DNA of 64,000 bases. Origin: Cenococcum geophilum. Taxonomy: Eukaryota. Both the position numbers and the translations under genes were made by a program. A model generated the notes under the pieces. That model was given only the letters and a program-made list of their open reading frames with translations, ran no database searches and was not told the origin of the DNA. Location: the NCBI GenBank assembly GCA_050273025.1, contig CP158635.1, positions 1,488,001 to 1,552,000 on the forward strand, read 5' to 3'. Positions 1-64,000 of the stretch are shown piece by piece. Position 1 is the stretch's first letter. Each line of letters opens with the position of its first letter.

Positions 1-960
1 TTGCTCTTAAATATAGTTTATATCTCTAAGCTGTGGTTAGGGGCGCCTCTTTATACAAGCTAGTAATATAAACCCCAAATCTTTTAAGTCGGTGTTTGGG
101 ATAACATTAGGAGCATATTTAACAGCCTCTTTAAAGTTCGCTGTGTTAAAGTTAGTATAATAAATAGAGCTCTTTGCAGAAAACTTATAGAGTAGTACTC
201 GCATATCTTAGCCGGATACACGAATTAATATAAGGCTAACCCGGTAATATAAAATTCCCAGCTTCCTAAGGTAGTTAAATGCGTTAAAAACCTAACTCTT
301 AGTACTTAACTATAAGTTAAAGAGCTTAAAAAATATATTGAATGCGCAATAAACTATAACTGCGCTTCTTCCAGTCCAACACGAATATGGATTATTTCTT
401 TAAGTATAAATTAATAGTATTCAACACTAATTTTTAGAAATTTGCCTTCTAAGAATGCTTACTTAATCTTAATAATGTTATTATACGCTACTTACCTAAG
501 AATATCCTTCTCTACTAGCCTATGCTCTTTTTTAAGCTTCTTAGATATAATTATGCTAGGGATATACTTACGCTAATATATTACTTATTCAGTTTTACCC
601 TATATAAGCGTGCCTAGGGTAATAAGCTCTTGTAGCTGTTTGACACCGGAAGTATTATTTAATATTACAACTAAGACTTCCGGGGAAGCGGCAGTATTTA
701 TTCGATTTAAAAAGGCTTTTAGAATCGGTACGCTAAGAGATATAATGGATTAGTGGATTATATTAGTATAACTTTTAGCTTTCTACATAAGGGCGGCTTT
801 TATTAGAGCTATTAGAGCACTTTCCTTAAGATCTAGCATCCTCTATGGTTAAGGATGCCTAGTAAACACATTCTTAATCATATATCCACTAGAATCTATA
901 TATAGTAGCATAATTGCTTATAGGGGGAAGTATCTGCTATAGTAAGAGGTAAGCGCATTT
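1..960 (-). pseudogene. Protein-kinase-fold (probable pseudokinase) gene relic, runs off the window edge
   Basis: Minus strand reads EKDILR*VAYNNIIKIK*AFLEGKFLKISVEYY*FILKEIIHIRVGLEEAQL*FIAHS / VFNAFNYLRKLGILYYRVSLILIRV / NFKEAV...TDLKDLGFILLACI. This fits kinase subdomains III-IX (H.NIVK, VEYC, FDYL...H) without a clear HRD or DFG. Two short intron-like gaps. Confidence 0.55.
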
Positions 961-2064
961 TAAATGTCCTTATAAGATGGGAATTGGCTAGTACAAATCT
1001 AAAATCTGGGAAACCGTTATTAGGAAATCGAATTCGGTTTTCGCGAATTAGAGCTTAGTTATTAAGATTAGAATACGGTTCTATTTTCTAAACTTTAACT
1101 TTTAACATTTACGCTTAAGGCCAAGCTTAATATCTTTTAAATAGGTATAAAAAAGCGCCTTTAAGATAGAGTCCTCAATTTATAGTAAGCTTCCCCGCTA
1201 TTATTAGGCTTTTAATAAATTTTTGACTCTGTACCTTTAATGCCCACTAAAAGTATACCTAAGTATCCCTATCTTTAACCACTTCGCCTAAGCCGGTCGT
1301 CTAATAAGCACGTTTCTAAGCCTCCCTATTAGCGTTAAGAGTTAAGTCCAAAGGCTGCCCTAATTAAAATCACAGATAAAGCACCTTTAAATATCTTAAC
1401 TCTAAAAGAATCCTCTAAACCCCTAATACCAGATAACTATAAAAGCCGATGGGTATGGCCATCTTAATTAAAGCACAACTTATTAAATCTAGTAACTATT
1501 TGGATATTTCCTTCTTCTAAGCAGTATAACCTTTAAGCTAAAATCTAGTCGCATAACCAAACACGGGACGCGCTTAATGCTAAGGTTTAGCTACGCGTAA
1601 ACTTCGTATAGTAGTTAACTTAACTATCTATAGATAACGCTGCATAGTATGCTGCGTATAACGATATTACTGCTACGCTCTAGTAGTATACTTAAGATTA
1701 CGCTTATATACTTATAGACAATAATTACCTAAGGGCCAAGATTTAGCGGCTTATAGTTTAAGTACTCTATATCTTTATACTTTCTACCTTTATAAACTAA
1801 TAATAGCTAGTTTAACTGCTTATTAACTTTCATTCTTAACGCATTAGCCCTAAAGGATAAATAAATTCGCGTCCTTTAAAAGAGGTTGTTTTAATAATCT
1901 AATAAGGCAAACCGTAAATATTATAGTAGAGATATGGTATTAGTAACAGAAAATTCTGGGGTAAGGGAAATAGAAGCGTTAGATTATGCGTCTTCTTTAT
2001 ATTCCCTTAAAGTTTAGAAAATTTTACTCGTGCTATAAAATGTAAAATACTTTGCCTATAGTCT

Positions 2065-2198
2065 AGCATTCTCAATTTCCAAGCGTTCTTATTTCCAAGC
2101 ATTCTCATTTTCTAAGCGTTCTTATTTCTAAGCATTTTTATTTCCTAAGCATTTTTATTTTCTAAGCATTCTTAGTCTCTAGGCATTCTTAAATTTTA
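2065..2198. repeat. Tandem array of about 8 copies of a 16-17 bp unit (AGCRTTCTYATTTCYA)
   Basis: Directly visible: agcattctcaatttcca / agcgttcttatttcca / agcattctcattttcta and so on. Non-triplet period, intergenic. Confidence 0.85.
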
Positions 2199-2736
2199 AG
2201 TATAATTCGTCTTTAAAGCGCTGAATTGAAAAAGAGATATAGAGGATTAAGTAGCGTGCCTTTAGGCTATTAGCTTTATATAGATACCATCTATACTATA
2301 AAATTACTCCTTAAGGTATAAAATGGGCATAGCTATATTTTAAGGTGCGCTTATCAATAAATACTTATTATACTACCTATTTATTCTAAAGCCGTAAGTA
2401 ATTTAGCTATAAGGGTTTTAGGTAGGCATTATAATAGGCTTTTAGGTTATTAAAAGACAGACTTATATAAAGATAACCAAAGGAAGGTATTTAGACCTCT
2501 TTAATTCCTTATTTTTGGGATACTAGGAAGGTTTTTAATAAAGGTATAAATATAACCTTAGATTATATAAAAGCCATAAAATGAGGATTATTAATTACTT
2601 AACTAATATAATATATAGGTTACACGAAAATTAACAAACTTAACGCAAAAATAAGAATTAGTAATAACTAAATAAAAGTAATAATAAAGCATAGATAACT
2701 GCGTAGCGTAATTAACTCGGTTACTTAACCTAAACC

Positions 2737-4359
2737 CTAAAAACCTAAGCTTATCTTATTTATGTTCTATACTACTAGGCATTCCCCTCTTTCCTAAAGA
2801 CTAAGTTTACGGAAATCGCTAACTCCTATTATTATAAAGTAATCTTCTTTAAATTTCTTAAATATAGAATCTTTGTTAACAGCCTAGTCTACAGCGGGTA
2901 ATCGCCGGCCTATATAAGCGGATGATAACCGGCCTATGTAAGTAGGTGATAAACGGGCTATTAGAGTGGGTGATCCTCTAAGTAACTAATTGCGGAATGT
3001 ACGGGCTATTCCCGCAGTAAGCCTAATAGAAGGAGATCTGCTTCTTTTTAGCTCTTTACCTAGTATAAACTTAAAGAATCTAGCTTTTATAATAGTAGCA
3101 GAATTATAAAGCGCCTAGTTAGTAATATACGCTCCCTATCTTAACTATAAAGTTGCTTTAGTCTCCTACTTTTTCTCTAACTTGCTGTTAATATCCTAAT
3201 TAATTAAGACATAGTAAGGACCGTACCTTTTATCTCCTTTTATATCTAGATTAAGCAGATTTAACTTAGTGTCTATATTAACTGCGTCCTCTATAAACTA
3301 AGCGACTCCGAAAATATCGTTAATATAACGCCTCGTGTATTTATATTTGCCATTATTTAGTTATTAGTCTCTATATTAATTAAAATGGTTACTAACTTTT
3401 TGGTTCTCTAGTAGATTCTCTTTATACTAAGAATCCGCCGTAGATGACTTAATTTAATACTTCGGATAACTTTTTGGTCCGTATTTATTAATATACTTAA
3501 TGCCCCTTCCGCTAATCTACCTAATAGTTATTATAGGCACACCCTTTACCTTCTTTGGACTAGGCCTATAATATAATAATCGACTATACTTAGGGTCCTC
3601 CTTTAAGTTATCTTTACCTATAAGGTCGATAGGCTTATTCTTCCCACCGTTCTCTATGCTTTTATAGGGAATGCTATTTATCCCTTTAGCACCCTTACTG
3701 GGCTCCTCTTTAACCTTAGTCTTGCCCTCTTCTTTTCCCTTAGCTTAACCCTGTTCTTTCCCCTTAGGCTTAGCCTATTCTTTCCTCTTAAGCTTAGCCT
3801 ATTCTTTCCCCTTAGGCTTAGCCTGTTCTTTCCCCTTAGGCTTAGCCTGTTCTTTCCCCTTAGGCTTAGCCTATTCTTTCCCCTTAGGCTTAGCCTATTC
3901 TTTCCCCTTAGGCTTAGCCTGTTCTTTTTTCTTAGTCTTACCCTTTTCTTTTTTCTTAGGCTTAGCCTGTTCTTTCTCCTCCTCCTCTTTCTCTTCCTCC
4001 TCCTCTCCCTCCCCCTCCCCCTTCTCCTCCCCCTCCTCCTTCCCCTCTTCCCCCTCCTCCCCTCCCTCTCCCTCCTCCTCTAACTCCTCCTCTGACTCCC
4101 CCCCAGATTCCTCCCGTCTAGCCTTCTCCGATTTTATTTAATTACCTAACTAACTTGTAGCCGCAGCGAAATATTCGTTATATTAAGTGCCCTAGGGGTA
4201 ATACTCTAGATTAGCACCCTATAGCCTGGCTTTATTGGTTTTTATTACTTTCTACGCTATAGAGCCTGCTTCTACTTCTAGCTTAAGGAGACTTAGGTTG
4301 TTAACAAATTTTAGATATTTCTTATATTTAGCCACTAATTTATTAATAAGAGTGGCCAT
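2737..4359 (-). pseudogene. Hypothetical protein relic with an E/G-rich tract, (QAKPKGKE)n repeats and a globular C-terminal domain
   Basis: ATG at 4359 (MATLINKLVAK...), EEEGE low-complexity 3975-4115, octapeptide repeats, then GPKSYPKY*IKSS...KYKYTRRYINDIFGVA*...YVLIN*DINSKLEKK*ETKATYS*R*G. Stops fall at Q/W/R-type positions expected from RIP. Confidence 0.6.
3726..3975 (-). repeat. 24-bp coding minisatellite, about 10 copies (TTCTTTCCCCTTAGGCTTAGCCTG), encoding QAKPKGKE on the minus strand
   Basis: Directly visible tandem units with period 24. Confidence 0.9.
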
Positions 4360-4809
4360 CTTAACTAATTATAAGATACTATCGTGGGGTAATATAAAAA
4401 GTGCTGTTCTTATAGGTAAAATACAGAACTAGAAATGGAGGTTAGAGTAAAATTTAAAGTAGAACTAAGGAAACGGAAATTGGAATAGACTTTAAAGTGT
4501 AATTAAGGAAATAAAAGTTAACTTAGTAAGTTAAGTGCCTGCTTAATAGGTTGCTTAAAAAATAAATTATAAGTTAGGTTACTGGGTAGAGGTTCTTAAA
4601 TAATTATCGCGGAATAACATACTTTAGTAAATAGGTACCTTTACTCTTAAGCCAATAAATGTTTGCCTTCCCTGGGGGGCATATAGGCATAAATTCTAGT
4701 TTTTAATTTCTTATTTATAAAATCCGTTTTCCCGTTTATAAAATCCGTTTTCTCGCCTATAAAATCCGTTTTCGTATTTATTGAATTTACTACGAAATCT
4801 AAATCTAGA

Positions 4810-5658
4810 ATGCCTTTTTTTATTACCCTTTTTACCTTTTATATAAGCTTAAATAGTCGCACCTTCTATTATCTTACGTCCTTACCTAAAACTATATTCT
4901 TTCTTTAGGCCATTACATCCTCTCTAGCCGCTACTGCTTTCGCAGGCACTATTTACTTCTATCGCACTACGGTATAGAATGATTTAACATCACTCTAATA
5001 TGCTTACTAGTTAGATAGCCTATTCCTAACCTATACACTAACTACACTACATTAAGTAGTATAGATTTTAGTTGGAGCTGCTAGATAGCTTACCTTTAAT
5101 CTTAACTCTGTTAGTATATTGGTCGGAACAGTACTTTAATTTAATTTCCTTAGTCTTAATTATACGTTAATATAAAGTCAACTTAAAAACCCTTGCTAGA
5201 AGAACGGCTCCTTTAATATAGGATTTAATTAATTTAATTCTATAAACGTGAGCGGCAAGTTTATTATAGATTTCGAGGTAAATACTAAGAAACCTTAATA
5301 GTTCTACTATGTATAAACGTTCCGCAAGTCTCATTGCTATGCTAGCATGGTTTTCAGCGTAAACCCTAGAGACGAGGCAGACCAGTTTATAAAAAATGCT
5401 TAAAACTCTACTATTAAAGCAGCCCTAGTTATACTTCCTACTACTAATACCTATCCTTTCCCTTCTAAGAGCTCCGAGGTTTTATTATCTCCTATAGTTA
5501 CTAACCCTATAGTTCTCTTAAGTGTAGGTAAGGTTACGTTAACTAGTAGTTCTTAAAGCTTATTCTTAATCTCGCCTAAAATTTCTAATAGCGCTAGAGA
5601 TCTATTACTTAGATTAAGCTACTATATAGAAGGTGTTCTTATAGCGTTAGTCTTATAA
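4810..5658 (+). pseudogene. Cupredoxin-like extracellular serine/threonine-rich protein relic
   Basis: Reads ILVGAAR*LTFNLNSVSILVGTVL*FNFLSLNYTLI*SQLKNPC*KNGSFNIGFN*FN...KP**FYYV*TFRKSHCYASMVFSVNP. De-RIP gives V.VG..G.L.F.P / F.F...NHT..QS...PC / PQWFYCAQ....HC.AGMVF.VNP, followed by an S/T/P-rich tail and a hydrophobic C-terminus. Confidence 0.8.
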
Positions 5659-7249
5659 TTTATAAACTTTTATAGTTATTCAGTAACTTTAGGTAGAGAA
5701 TAATAAATATAAAGATAGTTTATGGATAATCCGGATGTATAGAGTACTAAATAAACTATCTATTTTTTAAAGTCTTAAAAGTAAATACTGTAAGATTTAG
5801 AAAGATCAATGCGCTCGCTTATAGAAAACCACTTTTCCGTTTCTAGAATCCCGGTTCCTTTTTCTCGTTTCTAGAATTCCGGTTCGTATCCTGGTTCGCA
5901 TCCTAGTTCTTATTTCTAAGATCTTAACCTTTAGATATACCCCTTTTTAATTATACCTAAAGTTAAAAGACCTTACTATAATGGAAACTGGGAGATGTCT
6001 TATAATACCTTCCGGGCCTATTACAACCCTACTCCTTTAAGTCCGCTTATTAAATAGCACCTAGCTATTTCCTATCTTTTGTATAAATAGGGAGCCTAGT
6101 ACTATATCACTTTAAGAGCCTTATGGAGATATTTTAAGAGAACCGCTTTTAAGTACTATATAAACGGTTAGTACACCTTACATTTAGATATTAAAATCTG
6201 GTTAAAGGCTTAAATTTTATATAATTATTCTATTATACCTATTCCACCCATTCTACCTATTTTGCCTATTCCACCCATTTCCCCTAAGCTCTCCTTATAA
6301 AGTTTTAAGTTTGGTTTAATAGAAATATCAAACTAAAGATAGGCTAAGATTCTCCTTCCTTAGAAATGTTTCTATTATTAGATCTAAACGGGATTTGCCT
6401 TAGTTGCGGTTTTAGCAAAGGAGAGTTAAGAGGCTATACTTTATTGTATAGGGATAGCACCTGCCTCCTATAATTATCCTTAGTAGATTAAGGCGGATTT
6501 ATTAGTTTTCGCGGCCTATATAGTAGGCTTAGAGAAACTAGTAAAGGTTTTAGTTCTTATATAACGGTTATTAAAGGCAGTAAAGGATGCAATAGTAGGG
6601 GAGGCGGGTAAAGGTGTTAACCGGGATTTAGGGCTATATATTGTCCTAATTGGCGCTACTAAAAGGACCAGTTCTTTTAGTGCTATTTAGCGGTTAATAA
6701 GAAGCTCACTTAGATCTCATTCCTTCTCTTTATTAGTAAGGAGTCTACCTTATACTAAGAGAAAAGATAAACTAGTTCTTTTGCTTTTTTCTATAGTGCT
6801 TTCCCGGCGGCCATAACTTAAAGATTTTCGTCTTAAGTGGTAGATTTTATAATCTTCCTAATAATGCGTTTATTTGGTACCGTAAACGTAACACAATCTT
6901 TTTTTAAGTAATTTTAATGAAGTGGTTAAGGATAAGATATAATGGTAATAACTCTAAGGTTAATAGTATTATATGCGCTCAGCCGACTATATATACACTA
7001 CGCTATATCACTAAAAGGGTTGTTTTATTAAACCCTAAATAGCAATTTAAAACTAGGATTTAAAAATCCGGTTCCGGTTTTACGGTTTTAGAAACTAAGC
7101 CATTATATATATATAAGTTTCGTATTCTAGGATCTATAAAACTAAATCCTAATTTAGAAACATAAGGAATATACCTATATATTTAAGCTAGAGAAGCCCT
7201 CTAAACTAAGAGCACAGTATAGCGCAAATATAATTAGAATTACACTCCT

Positions 7250-9600
7250 TCTCCTTCCTACCCTATCTTTAGGCATTCTCTTTCCCTTTAAAAATTCTCT
7301 CCTATGCCTAATAAATCCTATTACATAGGTAAATGTAGGAAACAAACTAGATTTCTAGTACGTTTCGATACTAAAAACTCCTAGAGCTATGCTAATAGGG
7401 CTATATAGATTATTCAATTCGCGAAATGCGTTATATAAGGCAACCTTAAACTTTACAGATCCTACCTTTCTCCCTCTCTTTATAATTATAAGACCTTATA
7501 ACTGTTCTAGGGACTAAACCGCTAGCTTTAAGATTCCCTAAAGCTCGCCAAATAGCACGGCTGCTCTTTAATGGTATTACCCCTTATCCCTCTTATAAGG
7601 GCTATACTTATCCAGCCAAGGCAGTACGTTAGTTAACGCGCTATATTATATTCTCTCGTAGATATTATAAGTGGTAGTGGCGATTATAATACGTTTTAGG
7701 TAGATTAGGCAAGTATTATAGTAAGTGTTACTTATTAGAATAGCACTAGCTTCCTTTATCCGTTTCCACAAAGTACTCCTAGCGCGTTTAGTCTCGCGAT
7801 ATAAATAATATCTTATTAAAATAAGTTGCAATTAGGGGGCGAATCTATACAATTAGTTTTAGTAAATATATCTATTAGATTAATTATAACGCACTTAGGC
7901 TAATATTAATTAACATAGGTTTACTTATATGTGATACTGCATTAACTATAAATAAACGTCATCTAACCCAACTCTAATAGCCTTAAAAGTATAATAAGTC
8001 TATTTTAGTTCTTTATATAGAATAACCTTACTTATTATTGCCGTTATAGGCTTTAGAAGTAGAATATATCTAAATAGCTATATAAATTATTAAGGATATC
8101 CCTATAACTCTTAATCCTATTCCTTCCCTTATAACCTAAGAGTATACGCCTCTATACCTATTAGATTCGATATATATATTTTTATACCTCTAGAGGTTCT
8201 ATCTTAGCTAAGTATGCTTACTCTAACTTTAATTCTAGAATCTCTTTAAACTTTCGTATCTTTGTTTATAAAGTATAATTCTCTTTACCTTTTACTACCT
8301 TTGTTAATACTAGCCACTCTATCTGCATTTTAATCCATCTTAAGTCTATTTTATCCGTTAAGGTACCCAAATTAGGCTTATATCCGTACTGTATTCGCCT
8401 AAAGAGGTCTATCGCTATGCGCTTACTTTTTTTAGTAGATCTTTAAGGCATAATAGGAGTATTCTTATAAGGCGGGACTGCTTTTTACTTACGCTATATT
8501 GCTGACCTTTACTTACAAGGCGAAGCAGGTTTGTACTTATAAGGGGAAGCAGATTTGCGTTTATAAGTAGTAATTTTATAGTTATCGTCCGCAGGTTAAT
8601 CTAACGCTATAGTAGATAATATATCTTTATACCTTACTCCTAAAAGTTCGGATTCTTCTTAAATGCTACTTCTCTCTAAAAAAAAAGAGTAGTTAGTAGG
8701 TTAAGATTCCGATTTTCTATAAAGGAGATGCTGGAATGTACCTTTATCTAAAAATGCACCCTTAACTTTAGTAAGGAATTTGGCGTCATCTATAGCTTTA
8801 TTATTAATTAAAGGCGCGTTCTCGTTAATTCTATTATATTATCCTTTAAAGTTAAGCACCCAGCTAGATTTATTAATTAAGTCCCCTTCGGTTCCAGTCA
8901 TACTATTAACCGCCGTAAACTAGGTGCCTACGATTATGCTTTACTCTAATGCTATTATTATCTGGCTTAGGACTGGTCCTTTTAGGTTATTTAGAAATGC
9001 CGTACTTCTTACCTAGCTATTAACTATGGAATTCTTAGAGATTTTTACTAGGGTTAAGCCGAAAATAGGATTTCCTAAGAGAGTAATATTAATAAAGCCG
9101 TAAATAAGAGCCATTAAGAATAGGTATGCTGTCTTTTTAACGTCTTAGTGTAGGATAGTTTCTTTAACAAAAGGGCCTAGGGGATGCCTATTTATGTTTA
9201 GAAAGCTAACCTTTATATAAGCCCCGAGACGATACCCTAAAAGGTAGTACCGTTACTCTACCTTATTTTTATTCGCTGTAACTGTATAAATTCTAATCTT
9301 AGAAAGGTAGATGCTTTTATAGAGCTAACGGGTTACTAAAGTGCTATACTGCCTTAGTCTAAGGACCCTTGGTAATACTAAGTCTTAAATATTTAACTTA
9401 TATGCTAGATTTATGGTTAATAGGCCCTTAATTTCAAAACGAAGTAAAATAACTAAAATGGGTAAGGGGATGCTGTACCGTAATAGACAGCTTAAGCCGC
9501 CGCAAGCCTATTTAGCCTTCTTACTTTTGATATTCTTAATTTCTACTATTAAAATTATTTGTATGCCTAAGGCCCTAGCACGAAACACTAATCTGCTTAC
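7250..9600 (-). pseudogene. Hypothetical protein relic(s), no family recognised
   Basis: Long minus-strand frames broken only by TAA/TAG at likely Q/W positions (e.g. HPLGPFVKETILH*DV..., SIIVGT*FTAVNSMTGTEGD...). Includes ORF-track 7646..7831. Confidence 0.35.
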
Positions 9601-9989
9601 TTAAACGAAACTTCTACGCCCACCTAAGGCTCTGCTTAGTAGGTGACCCTTAATTAGCGCTTACTACTTACGGCTATTTAGGCAACTAAGGCGATTATAG
9701 CAAGGCTATTTATACTCTACCTCGCCGGTTTATATAGAACCCCTAGATAGTTTTACTTAGATGGCCCGTTATATATTATAATAGTATTGATTGGACTATA
9801 GGGTGTGTAATAGGAGTATAGTGAAGCTCTGTTCCTAGAATGCACTTTGTGTTTACCTTACACCAACTTGCCCCTCTTTGGTATCTCTATTAGTGTAAAA
9901 CGAAGTATAACTACTAGTACCCCCACTACCTACTCTATGTATCTTTTGTCCTCACTTCTTTCTTTATATAGTTAATTTATTAAACTAAA

Positions 9990-11176
9990 ATGCCTAAATA
10001 AATTCACCCTAAAAGGCAACCATATTTTACTAAAGATAGCAAGCCTTATTTTAAACCGAAATCCCTTAAAGAGATCTTACTTAAGGATTTTAAAAAGGTG
10101 TTTATAGTAAGGAAGAAGATTATTATTCTAAGCGGTGCTAGCATTTTAGTAGCTGCGAAAAGTAAGTCTTATGTATTGGAAACCGTAAAGAGCTACTTTT
10201 CTAACTCTTAATGCTTATAGTTTCTGACTTTTATACGCTTTATAGGCACCAATCTAGACGTAACCCGTTTAAGATTAGTAATTATAATAACGGTAATTCC
10301 ACCGAAAATATGCACGGTAATGTTTGTATTATAAATAAGAAAGCTTCTCGTGCCGTTCTTACTAACTCCTATTAACTTAAGTATAAGAATATCGTTTATA
10401 CCCTTTAAAACCTTATATTTTCTAGGCGCCAGTCTAGACATAGCCTATTTAACATTAATAATTATAATAACGATTATTTAACTCAAAATATATATAGGGG
10501 CTTTTGTATTATAAATGAGCTAGCTTTTTATGCTATACCTATTAACTTCTACTAACTTGCGAACGAAAACAATAAGCGTATCCTTTAACACTTTACGCAG
10601 AATATTAACGGACTTTATAATAAATTCCAGTCGTTATCTCTAGACTCTCCTTTAACTAAGAAGGGCCTATAGATAAAGACAATAGAACTTTACGGTTAAC
10701 TAGATAGGATAATCTGCTATAAGTGTAAATGGCGCTTAGCCTTTAACCTAAAGTACTTTTAGGGATCGGAACTATTGGCTTGTCCTAATTATATTAGGAA
10801 AGATATAGACTAATAAGGCGAAGGGAAACGGTCTAGAGATATTAGTATGCTTTGGCCCGATGTACTTCTTAATAGAGAAATTAACAATTAAGATAAGGAC
10901 GCGATTGCAGCTATGTCTTAGGATGCTAAACGTTAAGTTCCAGATCTTATTCTGATTATGGGCACTTAGCTAAAAAAACTAGGTATATTTTAGCTAGCCA
11001 CGCGCCTTTATAAGGCGGCGAAAACTAGAAATAGATGTAATCCCATTATATAGATAAATAAGGAACCCCTATTACGTAGATTAAGGCCAAAATTTCACGG
11101 CCTAATTAACTACACAATTTATAGGGACTGCCAAGAGATCGCTAGATATCTTTTAGATAAGGCTACGCCCCTATAA
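9990..11176 (+). pseudogene. Sir2-family NAD-dependent deacetylase (Hst3/Hst4-like) relic
   Basis: Motifs in order: KKIIILSGASILVAA (GAGISV), GTAAGT intron, SDF (PDF), FTQNINGL (TQNIDGL), IELYG*LDRIICYKC (LHG...CxxC), CPNY (CxxC), GKRSRDISMLWPDVLLNRE (GKR...G.LRP.V.L.GE), PDLILIMGT*LKKLG, *INKEP (WINKEP), DCQEIA. Confidence 0.88.
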
Positions 11177-11361
11177 CTTAATAGCGATGCAAAATTAGGA
11201 GGTAGCTGGCACGAAGATAGATAGGGAGAGGACAACATCGGAGTCTATAATAATAGTTTGCTTAGCATAAGGAAGTTAACCGCAGCCTTTAATCTTTCTT
11301 AGTGACTAGTCTTTTAATTTATAGGAAAGTTAAGTATATATAGTGTTAAAGCCTATATTAT

Positions 11362-12500
11362 TATCCTTTCTAAGTAGTAGCTAAACTACTAGCTTGTATA
11401 TCTCGTCTATAAACCCTACTAGCCGCGTATTTAATAAATACATTTCTCTTATCTTATGCCAGCCCTCTACTGCCTATTATAACGGCGTTTTACCATACTT
11501 ATCTTTAGATTTCGCGTCAACGCCGTCCTTAAGCAACAGCTCTACTATAGTCTTATATGCCCATTAAGCAGCCTATAAGAGTGGTGTCCAATTATTGCTA
11601 TCCTTAGAGTTAGAGTTAACGCCTTTCCGCGTAAGTAGTAGCTTTACTATCCCCTCTTATCCACTTTCTGTAGCCTATAAGAGTGGAGTCCGACCTTTAA
11701 TATTAGTAGAGTTTAGGCTGATGCCGTCCTTTGTTAGCAGTAGCTCTACTATTACCTCGTGCCCGCGCTCTGTAGCTGCTAATAGTAGTATTTAATTATA
11801 GAAGCCCTTAGGGTTTAGGCTAACACCATCCTACGCTAATAGTAGCTTTACTACCCCCTTATGCCCGTTTGTCGCGGCCTATAATAGCGGTATATCTCTA
11901 AGAGCGCTCTTAGGATCTGGATTAACGTTATTTTGCGTAAGTAGTAGCTCTACTACTGCCTCACTTCTATATTCTGCAGCTAATAACAGTGGTATAGCCC
12001 CAAATTTATCCTTAGAGTTTGGATTGATGTTATCCCGTATAAGAAGTAGTTTTACTACCGCCTTATAACCGTCACTTGTAGCCAATAACAGTGGCGTCCA
12101 ATTGAAATTATCCGTTACTTAGATATTAGCTCCTGCTTCTAGTAAAATATAAAACTCCGCTTCTTGTCTATATTCTATAGCCCGTAATAACGCTAAACTT
12201 TTAGAGCGCTGTGGTAATTTGGTTATTAACGAAAGTAGTAGCATTTCTAGACGAAGAGAGATATATATATTAACTTTATACTAATAGGATCTAAATAAGT
12301 AATAGAAATCTGGTAGTAGAAGGCTTATTGTCTAAGTAGCCGGCTATATAGTAGTATTAAAGTATATTTTAAGGATATAAAGCCAGTGATTTAACCTGGC
12401 AAATATAAGGTAGATTACCCTTTACTATAGAAGGATTTAAAATTTGTTTATAGAAGAAGAGGTAGCGTAAGAGGTATTTATTCTATTGGACTATTATTAC
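11362..12500 (-). pseudogene. Ankyrin-repeat protein relic (about 7-8 repeats)
   Basis: Repeated TPLLLA...G..AVVKLLL....NPNSKD units at about 102-bp period (ORF-track 11879..12085 is part of it), disrupted by RIP stops. Confidence 0.9.
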
Positions 12501-48199: not shown

Positions 48200-48360
48200 G
48201 TATATATATCCACCGATAAAGATATATCTACTAATAAAGATATATCTACTAATAAAGACATATCTACTAATAAAGATATATCCACTAATAAAGATATGTC
48301 CGTTAATAAAGATATATTTACTAATAAAGATATATTTATTAATAAAGCCACCCATAAATA
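48200..48360 (-). repeat. 18-bp coding repeat, about 8 copies (ATCCACCGATAAAGATAT), probably (MSSSVD)n before RIP
   Basis: Directly visible period 18, at the 3' end of the minus-strand gene interrupted by the Gypsy element. Confidence 0.8.
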
Positions 48361-49602: not shown

Positions 49603-50028
49603 TGTTACGGACGCTTTAAGTACGATGTTACGACTACTTAGAAAAGAGACGGAAGAAGCTAGTTAGTTAATATAGGCATGGTCTAGGATAGAGCCGATAG
49701 AACTATATGACGAGGAATGGTAACCAAGGTCACATAATATAATCTATATAATCTGTGTAATCTATATAATCTATAACAAAGTAGATAGAGCACACGTACA
49801 TCACGTATAAGAAGAATTTTATAGGAGTACGGTTGTATATTTAAGGACCCTCAATCCCTACCTAAATAGTTCCTTCCTTATAGTAATTCTCAGAATACAA
49901 TTAGAGTTAATCTATTAGGCAACTACTCCACCAGTTATTATTACGTTATTAACTTTTATACTTGCATTTCCTATACACTTAGCCTAATAACGAGCCTACC
50001 GTAGTTTTTGCTATAAGGTTCCGTTATA
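49603..50028 (+). repeat. 5' LTR of the Gypsy element
   Basis: TGTTACGG...CCGTTATA (CA>TA). Colinear with 57122-57547. Confidence 0.97.
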
Positions 50029-50144
50029 TAATTACTACCTAGTTACGGTATTAATATAAGAAGTTAAATAATATACTACCAAAAGCAGCCACCACGACGC
50101 CATTAATAATAGCAACTACTTTAAGGACAGGAGGTGATACTAGT

Positions 50145-53028
50145 ATGGCAGATACTAACTTATAGCAACCTGTAACGGTCAGACAATTATAGGAAATAGT
50201 TAACTAGCTAACAGCTAACTATATAGTATTAGAAGAAAGACTTAATGGGATAGGAGCAGCAAAGATTAAGCTACTATTAATTAAGAGATTTATAGGAGAG
50301 AGGTTAAAGCTTAAAGGATTTCTTATATAGATACACTTTAAGGTCTTATAGGAGGAAGCAAAGTTACCTATACCTGTAGATTAGATAGCCTACACAGGAC
50401 TATTCTTATTAGGAAAAGCATTTAAGTAGTTTAAACCTTACCTTATAGAAATACAGGCAAATGGAATAACAACCACTAACCAAAACGTGCGATTTATGTT
50501 CTTAAGTTAAAAAGGATTTGTAGAATAACTTACGCAGATATTTAGAGACCCGGAAGAAACAACTATAGCAGAAAGAAAACTCCAGAACCTTATATAATAA
50601 ACTTTAGCAATTAAGTATACGATATAGTTCTAGACACTAGCAATATAAGTAGAGTAGAATAATAGGGCGCTTATAGCATAGTATAAATAAGGACTTAAGG
50701 CTAAAGTCTAGAACGTAATTATTCTAATAAAAGATACGGACACCCTAAGGGAATTAATAGATTAAGTAATTAAGATTAATAACAGAATCTTCTAAAGGGA
50801 ATAGGCTAAGAGAGGCTAGGATAGAGTTCTACAGTTATATAAGGCGCAGAGCACGTAACAATAAAAGCTAAGTTAGAAACTATAGTATAGCGTAAAGCTA
50901 ATGGACCTAAGTGGTATTAAAGAAGCCTATAAGAGAGGGGGCAAACTATAAAAACCTAAAGGATAAGGATTAAGTAATTAAAGGTCTAAGGAGTAGAGGC
51001 TAAATTAGGGATCTTAACAGCAGAAGATATTTAGGCGGACTCTATAGTAAGAAAAATGGTTTAAAGAGGGAGCTTGCATAAATTGTGGAAAATAAAGTTA
51101 TTATGTTAGAGACTATAGAAGTGGGCAGAGTTACTATATAGTAAAAGGCACGAGACTAGTAGACGATATATACGTATAGAGGGACAATAATGTGCTGCGA
51201 GGAACAAAAGAATGTTTAATTAAAAGTTTTGCGTTTTATTACAATAACGTATACCGAATTTATAAGGACGCTAAGTATGGCGTAAGCTATTAGCTATAGG
51301 AGCTAGCACCTATAGAATATAAAGGAACCAATAAACTAGTTCGTAGATTAGATATTAAGGATAATAAATTTAATATAAGCGAAATATTCCGTGATAATAA
51401 GGCAATAAGGGCCGCTTACTAGGAGTGAGCAGACCTTAGAGATATTATACTAAAGGTAGAGGATAATTCTACTATAGAATAGGGAACATTAGTAGGGATC
51501 GAAACCCTACTAGATATGATGTCTATCGCTTTATAAGACGCAAAAGAAGTAGGATAGCGAACCACTTCGGCACTTAATAAAGGCAAAAAGCTAAAGGCTT
51601 AAGATTCTTAAGACAAGATAAGAGATAACTAAGATTCTTAAAACAAGATAAGGCATACCTAAGGACCCATAACGGACGAAAACCGATAGAGTAGGGCAGT
51701 AGCTTAGTTCAGAAATATATAAATAAGCTTAAAATAAGAGTTTCCCATAACACAAGATTCTTAAGACGAGATAGGAACACTACGGACGCCTAGTTAGACT
51801 AAGGCGGGAGCCAAGCTTAAGTTAGAAGCAAGCTTAGGATTAAAAAATCTAAGGGACTAAGATTTTAGGGTATAAATAAGGACACCCATAAATAAGAGGC
51901 AAGAGGCTTCTTTATAGATTAGAGAATCTATAATACAAACAGCAGTTAAACTAGGAAACAGACATATAGACCCAGAAGACTTACCAAAAAAACGTAGTAT
52001 TCAGCCTAAAGATCAAAAGTTCGATACTAAAATTAAAAAGCAAGATGACTTTAAGGATTAAAGCGCAAGGCGCAAACTAAAAGAAACCATAAAAGAATTT
52101 AAACAAAGAATCATCGCATAGCAAGAACAGAAACTAGATAAAAAATCTAATATATTGGAACATATAAAGAACAGAGCACTAGTATAAAGAATCACCAATA
52201 GGCTAAGAGTAGGCACACTAAGAGCTAAGTAGCTTACTGAATTGGAAAATGAAGAGGACCTAGGGATTCTAACTAGGTTTAAAGAATGATATATAAAGGG
52301 CTATTATAATGCAGTAATAAGAAGATACTTCTTTACGGACAGACCGTATACACTCCAGCAACTATACTAAAAGTAGTATAAGCAAAGACACAACAATAAG
52401 TGGGAAGATTTCTACATATAGTTGGACGAAAAAGTTATCTAGAACCACCCGATTACCGAAAAGGCTATAACGCATATTAAAGGAGCCTTAATTATAACGT
52501 CAAAGGATCTAGAGGAACGTTTAGAGGACTAGAGAGGTAAAAAAACATATCTTAGTACCTATGAATAAAGTTATAACGTTTAGATTAGCATAATAAAGGT
52601 TTAAACTTAGGAATAAAGATAAGCTAAGAGTTAACCTAAAGCACCTAGCACACTATACGTTATTATAGATTGCGTGCGTAAATAATATATATAAAATATA
52701 TAAAAATCCAAAGGAAAAAAATCGGAAATACCCTATAAGGATATACTAGATAACAGACGAGTAATAGTATAAGAATGCCAAATATATATATAGATAGCAT
52801 CTAGTAGAAGTCCAAGAGGAAGGAAGTTTAGTACTTTAACCAGGAAGATTCCTTACGGAAAAATACTTAGATAGACGATAGTAGTAAAAATACCTAAAAA
52901 ACACATGTCTATGGCATATTAAGGATAAAAAGCGAACTAGGCATTAGCTAAAGAATAAGCTAAGTGCACCAGGATTAAGCAGCTAATAGTTAGGAAAAGT
53001 AGAGGCCTATAGAACTAGAGGGAGCTAG
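50145..53028 (+). pseudogene. gag: gag (capsid, CCHC zinc knuckle and long C-terminal extension)
   Basis: LLLIKRFIGERLKLKGFLI*I (capsid F.G.R.KL.GFL.Q), zinc knuckle CINCGK*SYYVRDY (CxxCxxxGHxxxxC) at 51075, and about 1.9 kb further coding-like sequence to LGKVEAYRTRGS*, with one frame change. Confidence 0.85.
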
Positions 53029-56000
53029 TAGTAAAGCCTTAAACCCTTAAAGGAATTTAAGAATAATACCTAAATTTACGGATTAAGTAGTAAAATCAGC
53101 AGTTTAAAGCGCTAATAGATAGTGGAGCAACGCGAAACCATATCTTACTAGCAGTAGTTAAGAGAATGGGACTACCTTATAGACAAAAGGAGCAACTTTA
53201 CCCCTTAGTTATAATTTCAAGAGATCTAATAACCTATAGAGGAGGGATTATTAATCTTAAAATAGGACCTATTTAGATAACTATTAAAGGGAGATAAATT
53301 AAGATATCTTTTAATATCCTACTATTAGGACGGGATGAGGCAGTATTAGGCATACCTTGGTTACAGGAATACAATCTAAGGATTAATTAGATTATAGGTT
53401 AGGTCAATATAAGAGATACTTAACACCGCAAGATATAATAACAAGCTAAGTTGGTATAGTACTAAGTAGGAGCAACCTACAAAGAAATAGAAAAAGGACT
53501 AAGTTATGTACCAAAGAGATACTACAAGTATAGCAAAAAACTATAGTTACTAGAAAGTAAACAGCTGTTAAAATATATAGCATAGAACTATAAAATAGAG
53601 TTAGAACCAGGAATAAATCTAAAGTTCTTTTTAATCTATAAGCTTACTAAAGAAGAAGGTAGAGCATTAAAAGAGTTTATCTAGGAAAATCTACAAAAGG
53701 GATACATCAGACTATCGCAGTCATTAGCGGGTTATCCAGTACTATTCGTACTAAAGAAAAATAGCAAACTAAGGCTATATATCAACTATAGACAGTTAAA
53801 CAGCATTACCAGAAAGGATAGGTATCCTTTACCCTTAATTAGCAAAATCTAAGATAGGATAAGCAACGCGTAAATCTTTACGAAAATAGATCTAAGATAG
53901 GCGTACTATTAGATTAAAATTAAAAAAGGCGACGAATGGAAGGCAGCCTTTAGGTTAAAGAAAGGACTATATAAACCATTAGTTATGCAATTTAGGCTTA
54001 TAAACATACCAACAACGTTCCAGAAGCATATTAACAATATATTAGGAGAATACTTAGATGAATTCGTTATAGTATATCTCAATAATATTATTATCTACTT
54101 AATAACTAAGGAAGAACACGGGGAATACGTTAAATAGGTTTTAAAGAGACTACAAGAGGAACAGATGCTAGTAGCAATTAAGAAATACGAGTTCTTTACC
54201 AGGAAAACTAATTTCGTTAGATTTATCATTAAACTAGGCTAACTTAGCATAGATCCAAAAAAGATTAAGGCTATAGTAAATTGGTAGGAACTAGAGAACG
54301 TTATATAGTTAAGATCGTTTCTAGGGTTTTGCAATTACTATAAAAAGTTTATAGCGCAGTAGTTAAAGAATATTAAGCTATTTACGCGGTTAACAAAGAA
54401 AGAAGAACTATAGGTATAAAAAGAGGAGCAAAGAGAACTCTTTAAAAAAGTTAAAGAGTTATTTACCTAAAAGCTAGTTCTTAAAATCTATTAACTAGAA
54501 CTAGAGACGGTTATAAAAATAGACGCATTAAACTATATACTAGGAGTATGCTTTATATAAAGGTATTAAGATAGATGGCACCCAGTGGCATATTATAGTC
54601 GGAAAATAACACCACCAAAGTTAAACTATAACATCTACAATAAGGAGTTATTAGGTATAGTTACAGCATTAAAGGAATAAAGAGCATTCTTATAAGGTAT
54701 AGAGAAACCATTTATAGTTAAGACGGATTATAAGAACCTAATAGGATTCCTAATAATAAAGGAACTTAACTAGAGATAGGTTAGATAGGCAGAGATACTT
54801 ATAGAATACCATTTTAAGATTTAGCATATTAAAGGTACAGACAATACGCAGGCAGATACTCTAAGCCGTAAAGCTGAACTATAAAATAAGGAAAAGCCAT
54901 TAGGGGCTTTATTGCGAAAGGATATAAACGGATTAATCAGATATAATTATCTAAAAATCGTAGCAACTTAAGAAAATAATAAACTAAAGAAAGTCTACGA
55001 GACACCGGAAAGCTTTTAGGCATAAAGAATTCTAAAAGTATAGCTAGAAGATTTATAGGCGGATATATATAAAAATTAGGAAGCAAAGTATATCCTAAGA
55101 AGCATAGTAGAATAGTTTATAGAAGACTTCTATAAGGGACTAACTTAAGAACACAATAGAGCTATAAACTTAGTGTTAAGACTTTAGGAGGAATATATTA
55201 TTAATGGAATCTAAAGGATAGCCAGAAAAGTTATAAAAGAATATCTAGATTACTAAAGGAATAAACTAATAAGGCATAAGCTATACGGAGGGCTACAACC
55301 TATTAAAATACCAGAGAGACTATAGGAGGTTATATTATAGGACTTTATTATTAAGTTGCTAAAATTAAAAGATCCTATTACCAGACAAGATTATAACGCG
55401 ATCTTAGTAATAGTGGATAAGCTTATAAAGTGGGAATACTTTATAACATATATAAAAGAAATCTCAGCGGAAGATATCGCTAGAATCTATATAAAAGAAG
55501 TATTTATAAGATATAGAGCACTAAGTAAGATTATATTAGATAGAGATCTAAGATTTATAGCAGTATTTTAGGAAATATTCTTAGCGGAGCAAGGAGTTCA
55601 AGCAGCAACTTCTACCGTATATTATCCACAGACAGACGGTTAAACAGAAAGATTAAATTAGACACTAAAACAGTATCTAAGGCATTATATCAATTATGCA
55701 CAGAATAATTAGGTATTACTATTACCAATTACACAGTTTACATATAATGCAACACCTTAAGAAGGAATAGGCACATTACTATTTAAGGCAAATTATAGAT
55801 ATAAGCCAAGAACATCGTTATTACTACAGTAAGTAAAAAAAATGAGTAGTACAGCCAAAGAAAAAATAAAGGATTTAATGAATCTTTATATAGACCTTAT
55901 AGAGACAGCTAAGGTAGTATAAAAGAGAATAAAAAAGTACTATAATGCTAAGAGATCTAAGGGACCAGATCTTAAGGAGGGAGATAAAGTGTGGCTACTA

Positions 56001-56408
56001 TATAAAAATTTCAAGAGTTAACAACTAAGCAAGAAATTAGACCACGTTAGACTAGGACCTTTTAAAATTACGTAAAGGATTTTACCAGTCACGTTTAAGT
56101 TAAACCTACTAGCTAAAATAAAGATCTACCCTATACAGCACATCGTAATGCTAGAGCCAGTATATAGGAATGTTAAGCCACTGGTTTACAAAGCAGATAT
56201 ATATAGAGGATAAGAAAAAGACAAATGGTAAGTTTTAAAGATCGTTAATTATAAGGACATTAACGACGAAATATAGTATAAGGTTAAGTAAATAGGCTAC
56301 ACTAAGACTACCTAGGAGCCACTAGAGAATTTAAAAAATGCTATAGAAAAGGTACAGGAGTATTAGAAGAAATTAGGTTAGAAAGCATTAATAAAGAAGA
56401 ATCGCTAA
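52995..56408 (+). pseudogene. pol: pol: aspartic protease, RT, RNase H, integrase, chromodomain
   Basis: ALIDSGATRNHI (53110), [53 protein letters not shown] (YLDD), KIDALNY (TDASDY), YNKELL, VKTDYKNL, DRDLRF, STVYYPQTDG*TER, LGPFKI, chromodomain YKVK*IGY.KTT*EPLENL (56220-56340). Confidence 0.95.
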
Positions 56409-56419
56409 AGAACGAGTTA

Positions 56420-57052
56420 CCTAAGGGGGACCCAAAAAGAGCAGTTGCCGAACTACTTAGATCTGTTTCCTTCTTTATTAGAGGAGAATCCGTTCTTTTA
56501 TTACCTAGTTCCTGCAAGCCTTATTCTATAAGTTTCTACTCCTTAAAATAAACCTTCTTATGCACCTTCTTAAGACGGATTAGTTAAGCGGACGCCGCTA
56601 AACGAGACTTAAGAGCCCGTTACTAAGCATCGGCAGCCTCCTGTTTAGCGTCTTAAGATTAGTATAATTTAGCAAGAGTAATAGACAGTTTATTATCTAG
56701 CCGCGTAGCAGTAGATTAAACATAAAACCTTAAGATAAATTAACTAGGGAACCAGACGACTATTAAGAGTAATAGGTCGCGTATATTTAGTATTAGAAGT
56801 AGAGTAAACGTCATAGGACAAATAAATATTCGCTTTAGTACACTTTAAGTAAAAGGACGGTTGTTATAAAGATGGGTTTGCCAGCGTAATATAAACCAAC
56901 CCCTTTTTTAAATAGCGAGAACACGGAGACGGTATAATCTCACTAAGAGATAATATTGCAGTAACAGTGCGAGCATAATAAGCAGTTAAGGAAGAAGAAA
57001 TTGCTTTAGGTATAATAAGCAATAATATTAACCAAATTAATTAGACGGACAT
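56420..57052 (-). pseudogene. Antisense extra ORF of the retrotransposon: Cys6 zinc-cluster-like motif plus coiled coil
   Basis: Minus frame EIIPSPCSRYLKKGLVYITLANPSL*QPSFYLKCTKANIYLSYDV, de-RIP PCSRC.KKGLVC...C..CTKAN...SCDV, then DAKQEAADA**RALKSRLAASA*L...KE*KLIE*GLQEL. Confidence 0.6.
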
Positions 57053-57121
57053 TATACCTCTAGTAAATAATTTGGAGATATTCCGAATCTTTAAGGATAA
57101 AGATAAAGAGGAGGGAGATAG

Positions 57122-57547
57122 TGTTACGGACGCTTTAAGTATGATGTTATAACTACTTAGAAAAGAGACGGAAGAAGCTAGTTGGTTAATATAGGCACGG
57201 TCTAGGATGGAGCCGATAGAACTATATAACAAGGAATAGTAACTAAGGTTATATAATGTAATCTATATAATCTATATAATCTATATAATCTATAATAGAG
57301 TAGATAGAGCACACGTATATTACGTATAAGAAGGATTTTATAGGAGTACGGTTATATATTTAAGGACCCTTAGTCCCTACCTAGATAGTTCCTTCCTTAT
57401 AGTAATTCTCAGAATATAATTAGAGTTAATCTGTTAGGCAACCACTCCACCAGTTATTATTACATTGTTGACTTTTATACTTACATTTCCTATACACCTA
57501 GCCTAATAACGAGCCCACCGTAGTTCTTGCTACAAGGTTCCGTTATA
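57122..57547 (+). repeat. 3' LTR of the Gypsy element
   Basis: TGTTACGG...CCGTTATA followed by the AGGAT TSD. Confidence 0.97.
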
Positions 57548-61076: not shown

Positions 61077-61580
61077 ATGGCCACGCCCACTAAATTTAGC
61101 GTACTACCTATTAAGGCTATAGATCTGGCTAGACTCCTAGAAGAAGAGGCCTGGCAGACTCCTAAGATTAAAATTTTAACTAGTGACGTTTAGTAATTAT
61201 ACTAATGGTTATGCGAAATAGAATATAATAGATTCCCACTAAGCTAAGTTAATAAGCTTTAACGGAATATCACTTAGCCTAAATACTAGGAATGCGAAGC
61301 CTAATATCTAAAGAACGCGCTTAGTGAGCATATTTAGCAAAATGCTCTTTATAAATACGATATAGACGAGATACCTTCTATAGATAGCTGGTGGGGTATT
61401 ATAGCGTTCTATATATATTTTTTAAAGTAATACGGGCTTTCTTTAAAGTAAGTAAGGGAATGCCGACTATTAATTAAGACCTAGACCTACTGGCAGCCTA
61501 AGGTAAAGCTTTTTTGGGAAGCTTCGGCCCTTTAAGAGATATAGATAGTGGAGAAGCACTTGGCGAAGAAAGTATGATGA
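61077..61580 (+). pseudogene. Hypothetical protein relic
   Basis: MATPTKFSVLPIKAIDLARLLEEEAWQTP...RLSEHI*QNALYKYDIDEIPSIDSWWGII...TYWQPKVKLFWEASAL*EI*IVEKHLAKKV*. No family recognised. Confidence 0.35.
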
Positions 61581-61888
61581 GTATAGTAGTTAAAACCAAC
61601 TATTAGATTAGTTCTAGCTAGTAAGGTATTAGCTAGGATAATAAGGCCTAAAGCTAGCAACTCTATAGGGGTGAGGGTGGCGAAATATAGGGGTGGGGTC
61701 GGCGCTAAGGCATGCTAGGTTTAACCCTTCGCGTTATTATATAATCTAGATTAACTATTCCTCTATTCTAGTACACCCCCTACTATAAGTTAGGGTCCTA
61801 GCACCCCTTTAGTATAAGTTTATAGGTCCTCTTATCTCCGCTACCTACTAACACTTGCCTTATTAATTTATTTCCCGTCTCTATAACT

Positions 61889-63620
61889 ATAGCACCTACT
61901 AAGACTGTTAATTTCTCTAACATTTTCTTAATTTTTAGAAATTTTAAGGGTATACCTAATATCCTTACGTTGTCCGAGAATTTATAATATAAGTTTACTC
62001 CCCCTGTCGATGCTTTTCCGGCGAACTAGAAGGGAGGCCAGTTTGAGGAGCAGGAGCTTACCGGCCCCTTTTTTGCCCTAACTTTTAAAGATCACTACTA
62101 TCTAGATAGATGCTTCCTTAGTTCTTCCGGTAAAACTGAGATATATAACCTCTAGCTTATTAAAAATAACAAGACTGGCATTAGTAGGTGGTATATTAGG
62201 TTTAATATTAGCCTAGTTATAAGACGCCTAAGAGTAAAGATGCTATTAACAAATCCTGTTTATATAATTGATGGTAACGGCCGCGAAGTAGTCCTTATAT
62301 AGGGATTATCTATAGAAATCTCTGACCTAGTCACTATTGATCTTTAAACGGCTAGTTTCTGGGTATAGCGTCCGATCCTATCGCGTGAGGAAGAAGGTAG
62401 TTGGTAAGAAAAAGCCGTAAAATTTACTAAAGAACTTCTAGACTCCCTACTAAGATAGCTCCTTAGTCTTAAGGCTAAGACAAACAAGAACTAAACCAGC
62501 AATCTTAGATTTAGAAAAGATAATGCTGTATATATGCAGAAATGGGGATTAGAAAGGAAAGGAAGTCACGTATTAGTTATAAGGGTATAGGAATTAAAGT
62601 CTGGAGTTATCTTTGCCGCTAAGGAGCCATACTTAAGGAACTACGACGATAATATAGTAAGAAAGGTGTGGGAAGAATTAAGAGCGGAATATAAGAATAT
62701 AATTAAGCTTAGGGAGTATGTAAGTAAACGCCACCGAAACTATGTTGCCGTTAAGTGCTAATTAATTATCCTTTTTCTAGCTAAACTTAGTAAAAGTAAT
62801 CGACTTAATATCACTAGAGAATTAGTAGCTACTATGGATGATTATGGAGTGAATTCTATATAGCCTTAACTTAATAAAACCTAACACTTACAATATTCCT
62901 AACTTTATGCTTTAGGTCTATAACGGAATAGTTGCTATATATAATAAAGATTTTGCTTATTAGGACCTGAAGCTAGAGAATATCCTTATTAGAGTTAACG
63001 ACGATGGGCTTACTCCTAAGATCGCCAACTTTAGAGAATTGAAATTTAAGGCTTTAGGAAATATAATGACTATTACTAGCTTAGTATTATATATGGCCCC
63101 CAAACTCTATATAATAAACCTACCTTATTTTAAAGCTATTAATATATAGTCCTTTAGACTTATTATATTGGAACTTCTAACTAACTAGGAGCCTAACTTA
63201 GAGATATAGGGCTTCTACGGCCTGCTAAGTCCTAAACAGTATAATAACTGAGTTTATAACGTAATCCCTATTTATATAGCAAGTGCGCTAGAGACGTTTA
63301 GGTCTATATTAAAGGGACTATTATATAAGGAACCTAAGTAGAGATGGTCCGCTAAGGAATGCTAGAAATGGCTGCTAGGAATTGTTTTAATAAATATAAG
63401 CACGTAGAAAGGCACTAATAATAGCAAGAAGCGGCCTGTGTTAGTATCCAAGGACGACGGCTGTAGAAATATATGGAGTTAATACCCTACCTAATTAACA
63501 ATCTCTCTAGAGAGACGCAATCTCTAGGGAATACTTTTTAATACTTTTTATGTATTTAACGTAACTTCCGATGGAGTTTTAAAACTTGAAGGATTAGTAT
63601 ATATTAACAGAATTATCCCC
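61889..63620 (+). pseudogene. Ser/Thr protein kinase relic with N-terminal FHA-like region
   Basis: VIFAAKEPY (VAxK), FAY*DLKLENILI (HRDLKPEN), PKIANFRELK (KIADFG), VLYMAPKL (YMAPE), AINI*SFRLIILEL (DMWSFG), EPK*RWSAKEC*KWL. N-terminal TGISRWYIRFNI resembles the FHA G.SRRH motif. Confidence 0.88.
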
Positions 63621-64000
63621 TTACTCCTTATTCTGTGTCTTTATTATTCTAACTATTTTAGCCGCTCTAACTCTAAGTCTACAAAGTCTTTAAAATAGTT
63701 TGACGCTGGTAAAGAGGTTATTAAGCTATATTATGTGCTTTCCTAGAGGATAGAGCCGCTACTAAGTAGTCTTGTGCGTTTATATAAGGCTTAGCGTTAA
63801 TATAATGCTATAAAAGGAAGAGTAGATATAGGATAGCTTACTAAAAGCTACCTATATTACTCCCTAATAACCTTAGTCTTGTAGTTAATCTTAATAGCTA
63901 TATATTGCTTATCTAGCTCCCCTTCCTCATTAATTACATTGTCTTTTACCTAAGTAAAGGCCTAACCTAAGTTTTGGCATACCTCTAGAGTTTTAGGGCG

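Follow-up and report, generated by a model that had tools for sequence, protein, structure and literature searches.

The 64-kb stretch of the Cenococcum geophilum genome analyzed here (contig CP158635.1 of assembly GCA_050273025.1, forward-strand positions 1,488,001–1,552,000; hereafter the window, with positions counted from its first letter) is an AT-rich block of gene and retrotransposon relics damaged by repeat-induced point mutation (RIP). Its central features are remnants of a DUF3723 gene and of a ferric reductase (FRE) gene, both known as accessory genes of the giant cargo transposons termed Starships, together with the remnant of an ABC transporter. On balance, we lean towards the view that the window lies inside a Starship-like element, now derelict, whose family has unusually many copies.

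RIP damage extends over the entire block (1–64000, ~33% GC), as judged from the RIP indices and the scarcity of open frames. In 1-kb sliding windows with a step of 500 bp, a RIP-positive call required a TpA/ApT ratio above 1.15, a (CpA+TpG)/(ApC+GpT) ratio of 0.75 or less and a composite index above 0. With these standard thresholds, 125 of 127 sliding windows were positive, and the other two failed narrowly on the substrate index (0.80 and 0.76). Over 2-kb bins, the GC fraction is 0.299–0.359, TpA/ApT is 1.42–1.74, (CpA+TpG)/(ApC+GpT) is 0.45–0.70 and the composite index is 0.76–1.23, and the window as a whole qualifies as a RIP-affected region (the RIPper criteria are cited in PMC9156397). 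CpA and TpG are depleted (observed/expected 0.41 and 0.51), and TpA is raised (1.40). Only four stop-to-stop frames of at least 120 codons occur in the 64 kb, and three of these longest frames arise inside a 24-bp tandem repeat at 3707–3980. This repeat is one of six tandem arrays with periods of 18–202 bp, the others being located at 15455–15921, 17504–17642, 22363–22521, 35720–35925 and 48204–48347.

Genes were sought by comparing read-through pieces, with X at stops, to Pfam. The 314 pieces of ~150–900 residues were picked by low stop density and covered a part of six-frame space, namely frames in which stops make up no more than 6 of every 100 codons. In three listings, 62 of 62, 40 of 45 and 52 of 61 pieces were scanned, leaving out 14 listed pieces over long terminal repeats (LTRs), the DUF3723 gene and the Zn2Cys6 region. 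Read-through frames of 4500 residues gave no Pfam matches; shorter pieces worked. Five gene relics are solidly identified: DUF3723, ankyrin, DUF7492, the ABCB transporter and one kinase. Stop density alone was a poor gene finder in this window. Frames with 5–6 stops per 100 codons contributed only the second half of DUF7492, and the genuine DUF3723 relic has 6.6% stops. The Pfam scan also missed the FRE relic, and its sensitivity is therefore low. Two further approaches were abandoned: a self-trained codon model, which drifted toward an A-rich retrotransposon, and blastn with purine/pyrimidine recoding, in which long alignments were mostly spurious and only two true diagonals stood out.

DUF3723, ferric reductase and ABC transporter relics

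The DUF3723 relic occupies 23599–27711 on the plus strand and is colinear over this length with P0003, an intact, stop-free relative of 1313 residues. The Pfam match of the relic (E 2e-76, within 23705–25441, plus strand) is above the cut-off, and P0003 matches the same family with an E of 7.7e-144. The relic and P0003 share 872 of 1312 residues. Of the mismatches, which number 440, C>T/G>A changes alone account for 320 and the reverse changes alone for 24, and 78 of the 87 stops in the relic can be derived by RIP. The Pfam domain spans only residues 58–568 of P0003; its C-terminal 740 residues have a coiled-coil look by eye, and the C-terminal half of the relic is an apparent coiled coil. An internal tandem duplication is present in the relic (26031–26262 and 26271–26517, 75.7% identity). 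Three short intron-like stretches (24008–24056, 24356–24400 and 25406–25455; given as 45–49 nt) are found in the window and in the two genomic copies described below (L001 and L002), and in the window two of the three begin and end as canonical introns do. Because P0003 lacks all three stretches, a spliced transcript was probably the source of its prediction, in which case an intact DUF3723 copy would be expressed somewhere.

The FRE relic lies 2.3 kb from the DUF3723 relic on the same strand, at 29980–31700 (plus), and runs over two frames. Pieces of the window gave no direct Pfam match in this region, and the assignment is supported solely through the single homologue P0124. This protein was the one database relative of piece 30249–31700 (E 2.1e-38), is placed by tblastn at 30549–31229 with conserved motifs aligned, and contains FAD_binding_8, Ferric_reduct and NAD_binding_6 domains.

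The third relic, an ABCB-type half-transporter at 44459–45949 on the minus strand, has an ABC_tran match above the Pfam cut-off (E 1.3e-17, within 44246–46258, minus strand) and aligns without gaps to P0004, an intact ABC open reading frame of 497 residues with ABC_membrane and ABC_tran domains. Across 45949–44459, 356 of 497 residues are identical and 124 of the 141 mismatches are explained by RIP, so that 96.6% of positions are accounted for; all 14 stops in the relic are RIP-derivable. C>T/G>A damage is therefore seen directly in two non-transposon genes (DUF3723 and ABC) through their intact relatives P0003 and P0004. Together with the RIP indices, these comparisons confirm the claim of the original prediction that every recognizable gene over the 64 kb carries such damage, and its suggestion that an intact copy may exist elsewhere is supported for these two genes by the intact relatives in public data. 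P0004 has full-length matches in the PDB to ABCB6 and ATM1-type heavy-metal exporters. P0004 aside, no word-index match of the ABC relic exceeded 39% identity and most were to bacteria; the way in which candidates were selected probably accounts for this. The combination of FRE with an ABCB6/ATM1-like transporter suggests, by homology, a cargo with a metal-handling flavour. The Starship Hephaestus reportedly carries metal-resistance cargo.

Colinear copies and copy number

A metagenome scan with P0003 recovered two RIPped copies of the region, L001 (a complete contig of 12413 bp) and L002 (22.7 kb of a 111-kb contig). Both have 32–34% GC and RIP indices like those of the window, and together they are colinear with 15173–34614, with high-scoring segment pairs in the same order and orientation. 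In L001, positions 1310–12413 match window 23576–34614 as one segment pair with 86.2% identity, and a further 0.7 kb matches leftward. L002 matches window 15173–22360, 22813–29117 and 29110–30179 with order and orientation kept, and the sole large difference in the shared part is a ~6-kb nested Gypsy retrotransposon. This insertion (L002 15480–21470), which contains reverse transcriptase, RNase H and integrase zinc domains, lies at the equivalent of window ~29.11 kb. Colinearity over 12.4 kb in L001 and ~15 kb in L002 bears out that a large unit moves or copies whole, cargo included. The window and L001 differ by 1208 transitions and 129 transversions and are 98.8% identical when transitions are ignored; the same measure gives 98.5% for the L002 core. 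A unit of 19 kb or more was thus copied near-identically, and RIP then acted on each copy separately. The unit runs through the DUF3723 gene into the ferric reductase and past it, and in full it is probably much longer.

Compared with itself, the window shows the Gypsy LTR pair as its only dispersed repeat, and taken alone it looks single-copy. Its multiplicity was established from contigs of sequencing runs, independently of L001 and L002. Runs X1–X4, all from one sample that is the probable source, contained 0.58–0.60 of the sampled words of 38000–47999, and sixteen other runs contained 0.07–0.15; no RNA run was among those listed for this interval. Contigs of X1 and of isolates X5, X6 and X15 (other samples and studies), only 250–900 bp long, were mapped to 30101–50100 at 80% identity or more. 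The evidence on copy number comes from these four runs and not from X7–X14 and X16–X20, whose word shares were small. The numbers of mapped contigs were 19045, 14314, 12259 and 15938 in X1, X5, X6 and X15, respectively, and all 30 bins of 30.1–50.1 kb were covered by many distinct contigs in each of the four runs. In X1, 2083 of the 19045 contigs were at least 99% alike and 8771 fell into the 90–95% class, and 3444 of 3631 changed places were transitions.

At the variant sites listed, 3–26 contigs per isolate carried another letter in the four isolates. At site 45459 in the ABC relic, for example, there were 13, 8, 7 and 18 such contigs in X1, X5, X6 and X15, and at site 30492 in the FRE relic there were 8, 7, 11 and 3. 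The corresponding counts were 7, 13, 6 and 8 at site 41013, which lies a short distance downstream of the Zn2Cys6 motif, and 5, 12, 8 and 6 at site 39908, just upstream of DUF7492. A single X1 contig has a depth of ~77–113, as compared with a baseline summed depth of ~1000–2100. Based on this comparison and on the contig counts, the cargo genes are present in the order of 5–20 copies per isolate, a figure to be read with the caveat that summed depth is not itself a copy number. The original prediction had held that the block was once present in more than one copy, and the many-contig bins and the colinear copies agree with this. Single-copy genes would have counted against that idea, and the genes in 30.1–50.1 kb are not single-copy. 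The picture of one fossil that was once duplicated has to be replaced, however, as the window is rather one copy of a repeat family.

Other gene relics and nested retrotransposons

An ankyrin-repeat relic is located at 11471–12238 on the minus strand (Ank_2 1.8e-61, Ank 5.2e-33), and no NACHT domain was found upstream of it in the pieces scanned. The DUF7492 relic at 38941–39549 (minus) is split over two frames that match with E values of 7.6e-16 and 4.6e-14 and cover profile positions 37–240 of 265. Its comparison with PDB sequences gave chance-level matches only, which does not support a cupredoxin fold, and no mention of DUF7492 was found in the literature searched. A protein kinase relic at 62826–63365 (plus) has two Pkinase matches above the Pfam cut-off (4.8e-11 and 1.6e-10). 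Three weaker features have matches below the cut-off. They are a kinase-like relic at 336–545 (minus; Pkinase E 0.028 and 0.044), a sirtuin-like relic at 10004–11260 (plus; SIR2 E 0.093–0.095 at 10565–10828), which gave 0 matches to PDB sequences at E 0.01, and a Zn2Cys6-like cysteine motif at 41130–41171 (minus; Zn_clus E 0.054, 14 profile positions matched). A further relic at 8014–9855 (minus) matched 16 representatives, mostly fragments of 33–127 residues with 53–100% identity. The longest relative, P0125, is an apparently intact protein of 323 residues with 40% identity and no Pfam family. The relic is that of a real gene, outside any recognized family, that likewise exists in several copies.

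The cargo named in the original prediction was thus recovered in part. Ankyrin, ABC, one kinase and DUF3723 are above the Pfam cut-off, and ferric reductase is present via P0124. The sirtuin, the Zn2Cys6 regulator and the second kinase remain weak, the predicted Myb-like domain was not found in the 314 read-through pieces, and the region taken for a cupredoxin gave only DUF7492.

A nested full-length Ty3/Gypsy retrotransposon occupies 49603–57547 on the plus strand. It shows the layout of this group, with a pair of 426-bp LTRs (49603–50028 and 57122–57547, 91.8% identity) around domains ordered on the plus strand as protease (2.1e-5), RVT_1 (1.6e-18), rve_3 (weak) and SH3_Tf2-1 (6.8e-9). In X1, the summed contig depth of the Gypsy LTR bin is ~1.1 million, as compared with ~1000–2000 in neighboring bins. 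The LTR is a member of an extremely abundant family, and an LTR that is 74–75% identical is present at L002 372–801. A weak Copia-like fragment lies at 37557–37790 (plus; Pol_BBD E 0.016, below the cut-off), inside a segment of higher depth at 37.4–38.8 kb.

Relation to Starships and competing explanations

In published Starships, DUF3435 captains co-occur with DUF3723, FRE, patatin (PLP) and NOD-like receptor (NLR) genes (PMC9156397), with DUF3723 corresponding to PF12520 and FRE to PF01794, PF08022 and PF08030 (Table 2 therein). Two of these four accessory classes are present in the window, DUF3723 and, through P0124, FRE; PLP was not found in the pieces scanned, and the NLR class is represented by ankyrin only, without NACHT. 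The original prediction had named DUF3723 and ferric reductase as Starship accessory genes, in agreement with PMC9156397. Because these two relics are adjacent and are accompanied by ABCB, DUF7492, ankyrin and kinase genes, the Starship-like reading is the one that we favor.

Regions that keep Starship cargo and have lost the captain are described as 'derelict' (PMC9156397; Gluck-Thaler et al. 2022), and 'derelict' or 'degraded' are also the terms used for RIP-inactivated Starship copies, which can diverge by RIP alone (PMC11162782; Gluck-Thaler and Vogan 2024). The window combines the features of such a region, i.e. Starship cargo, no detected captain, colinear copies and window-wide RIP. Its closest counterparts are the derelict regions of Macrophomina phaseolina, which (PMC9156397) also contain DUF3723 and FRE with no DUF3435 captain in the region, share similar swaths among copies, contain nested transposons and occur in genomes with RIP. 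The window differs from them in that its genes are all destroyed by RIP, PLP and an NACHT-type NLR were not found in the pieces scanned, and variant contigs number 3–26 per site, as compared with 0–5 copies there. Absence of the captain applies here to the 64-kb window and not to a whole element. Like the active Starships Voyager, Enterprise and Hephaestus (PMC9156397, PMC11162782), the window has tens of kb of cargo, and RIP is known to inactivate Starships; in Voyager, DUF3723 likewise lies near FRE (mp102_11356 and mp102_11352 in Table 2 of PMC9156397). Unlike these elements as described there, the window copy is dead and the copy number is far higher, and no captain, repeats or target site were seen in the window. 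Large RIP-affected AT-rich regions of ascomycetes share with the window a low GC content, high TpA/ApT, low (CpA+TpG)/(ApC+GpT) and degenerate transposons, but much of the window consists of gene relics with intact relatives and not of classic transposons alone.

Several observations weigh against a Starship-like origin. The DUF3435 (PF11917) captain was not found in the 314 read-through pieces, in a scan that was partial and desensitized by RIP, and neither PLP nor NACHT was matched in the same pieces. In a Starship the captain sits at the 5' end, and the element may begin outside the window. Neither element ends (direct or inverted repeats) nor a target or empty site came to light in the 64-kb window or in run contigs of 250–900 bp. 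Starships number 0–5 per genome in Table 1 of PMC9156397 and are expected at 'low copy numbers' in PMC11162782. The estimate of copies made here leans on summed depth, with the caveat given above, and this depth is uneven, reaching 3500–7000 at 31.4–35.4, 37.4–38.8, 42.1–42.8 and 43.4–44.1 kb as compared with the baseline of ~1000–2100. Contigs from three of the four runs link position 38014 to position 43691 across opposite strands, and many copies part ways at 43585–43676. Transition-free identity to L002 is 91–96% at 16–20 kb of the window and 98.5–99.2% at 22.8–30.2 kb. Finally, L001 and L002 may correspond to the window's own locus in other lineages and not to paralogues. The depth steps and the opposite-strand joint show that the block is composite and contains pieces that are nested or abundant in their own right; the content of the unit varies between copies. 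The cargo block of the original prediction is not a clean one, as the nested Gypsy and Copia-like pieces also demonstrate. The joint at 38014/43691 and the split at 43585–43676 indicate that other copies are arranged differently, through either an inversion or a separate element with related ends.

The composite structure would be expected if the window were a patchwork within an AT-rich isochore, in which unrelated repeat families (retrotransposons, gene-capturing DNA transposons and a multi-copy DUF3723 element) came to lie side by side with no giant element spanning the window. The depth steps and contig joints in 30–50 kb, the nested Gypsy and Copia-like pieces, the unequal divergence from L002 and the lack of a captain in the pieces scanned all fit such an arrangement. 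Two independent contigs, however, run in the same order and direction for 12.4 kb and ~15 kb with the nested Gypsy as the sole difference, and FRE, DUF7492, the Zn2Cys6 motif and ABC have similar baseline summed depths. Taken together, these points make a patchwork rather unlikely, although it is the most serious competitor. The missing DUF3435 and a copy number far above the published Starship figures would also suit a large DNA transposon with gene cargo from a so far undescribed family, which lacked a Starship captain and picked up DUF3723 and FRE. We consider this distinctly less probable, given that no transposase of any class was found in the window pieces scanned and that the co-occurrence of DUF3723 and FRE is the signature published for Starships (PMC9156397).

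RIP leakage into repeat-adjacent sequence is a known effect. An explanation by such leakage into single-copy genes, or by segmental duplication of a chromosome or accessory region, would require no mobility of the block and would agree with the fact that neither element ends nor a captain were seen in the window. Leakage into single-copy genes was rejected, as the genes are multi-copy in four isolates, with many contigs in 30 of 30 bins. The copies were 98.5–98.8% identical before RIP, which fits a burst of copying better than old duplications, and this explanation as a whole is very improbable.

The preferred reading remains that of a derelict Starship-like interior, and the window is filed as such a region. 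Proven Starship status is not supported, as neither a captain nor an element end or empty site was found in the window. The original prediction accordingly holds for the multiple copies, the accessory genes and the intact relatives, and it is not supported for a single fossil Starship interior. Of the three Starship families that it proposed to look for, DUF3723 was found (2e-76), FRE was found through P0124, and DUF3435 was not found in the 314 window pieces. By inference, the unit was mobilized by a DUF3435 tyrosine recombinase, and the whole 64 kb comes from a single element.

A large gene-carrying repeat unit has multiplied to roughly 5–20 or more copies per genome, and RIP has mutated the window copy throughout. 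Under the preferred reading, the unit would have been copied by a Starship-type tyrosine recombinase that is encoded outside the window or has become unrecognizable. Because the unit was repeated, it was subject to RIP. Repeated sexual cycles would have exposed all copies, cargo and transposon genes would have been killed alike, and the region would have been turned into AT-rich filler. LTR retrotransposons inserted later, one Gypsy element into the window copy and another into that of L002.

At present, the window is a well-documented but otherwise ordinary example of a relic class that is already known, and its copy number is the unusual part. A bolder proposal, which we put forward as speculative, is that a Starship-type family has departed from the 'low copy' rule and now numbers tens of copies per genome in a root-associated fungus, with cargo of metal-handling type (FRE, the ABCB6/ATM1-like transporter and DUF7492) and perhaps intact, expressed members. 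P0003, encoded by 4 contigs of up to 7408 bp, and P0004, encoded by a contig of 3326 bp, provide a handle for finding a living copy. If the unit were confirmed as a Starship, it would mean that cargo-bearing transposons of this giant kind can multiply in the way common transposons do, and that the conversion of whole gene sets into AT-rich filler by RIP is one route of genome expansion in this fungus.

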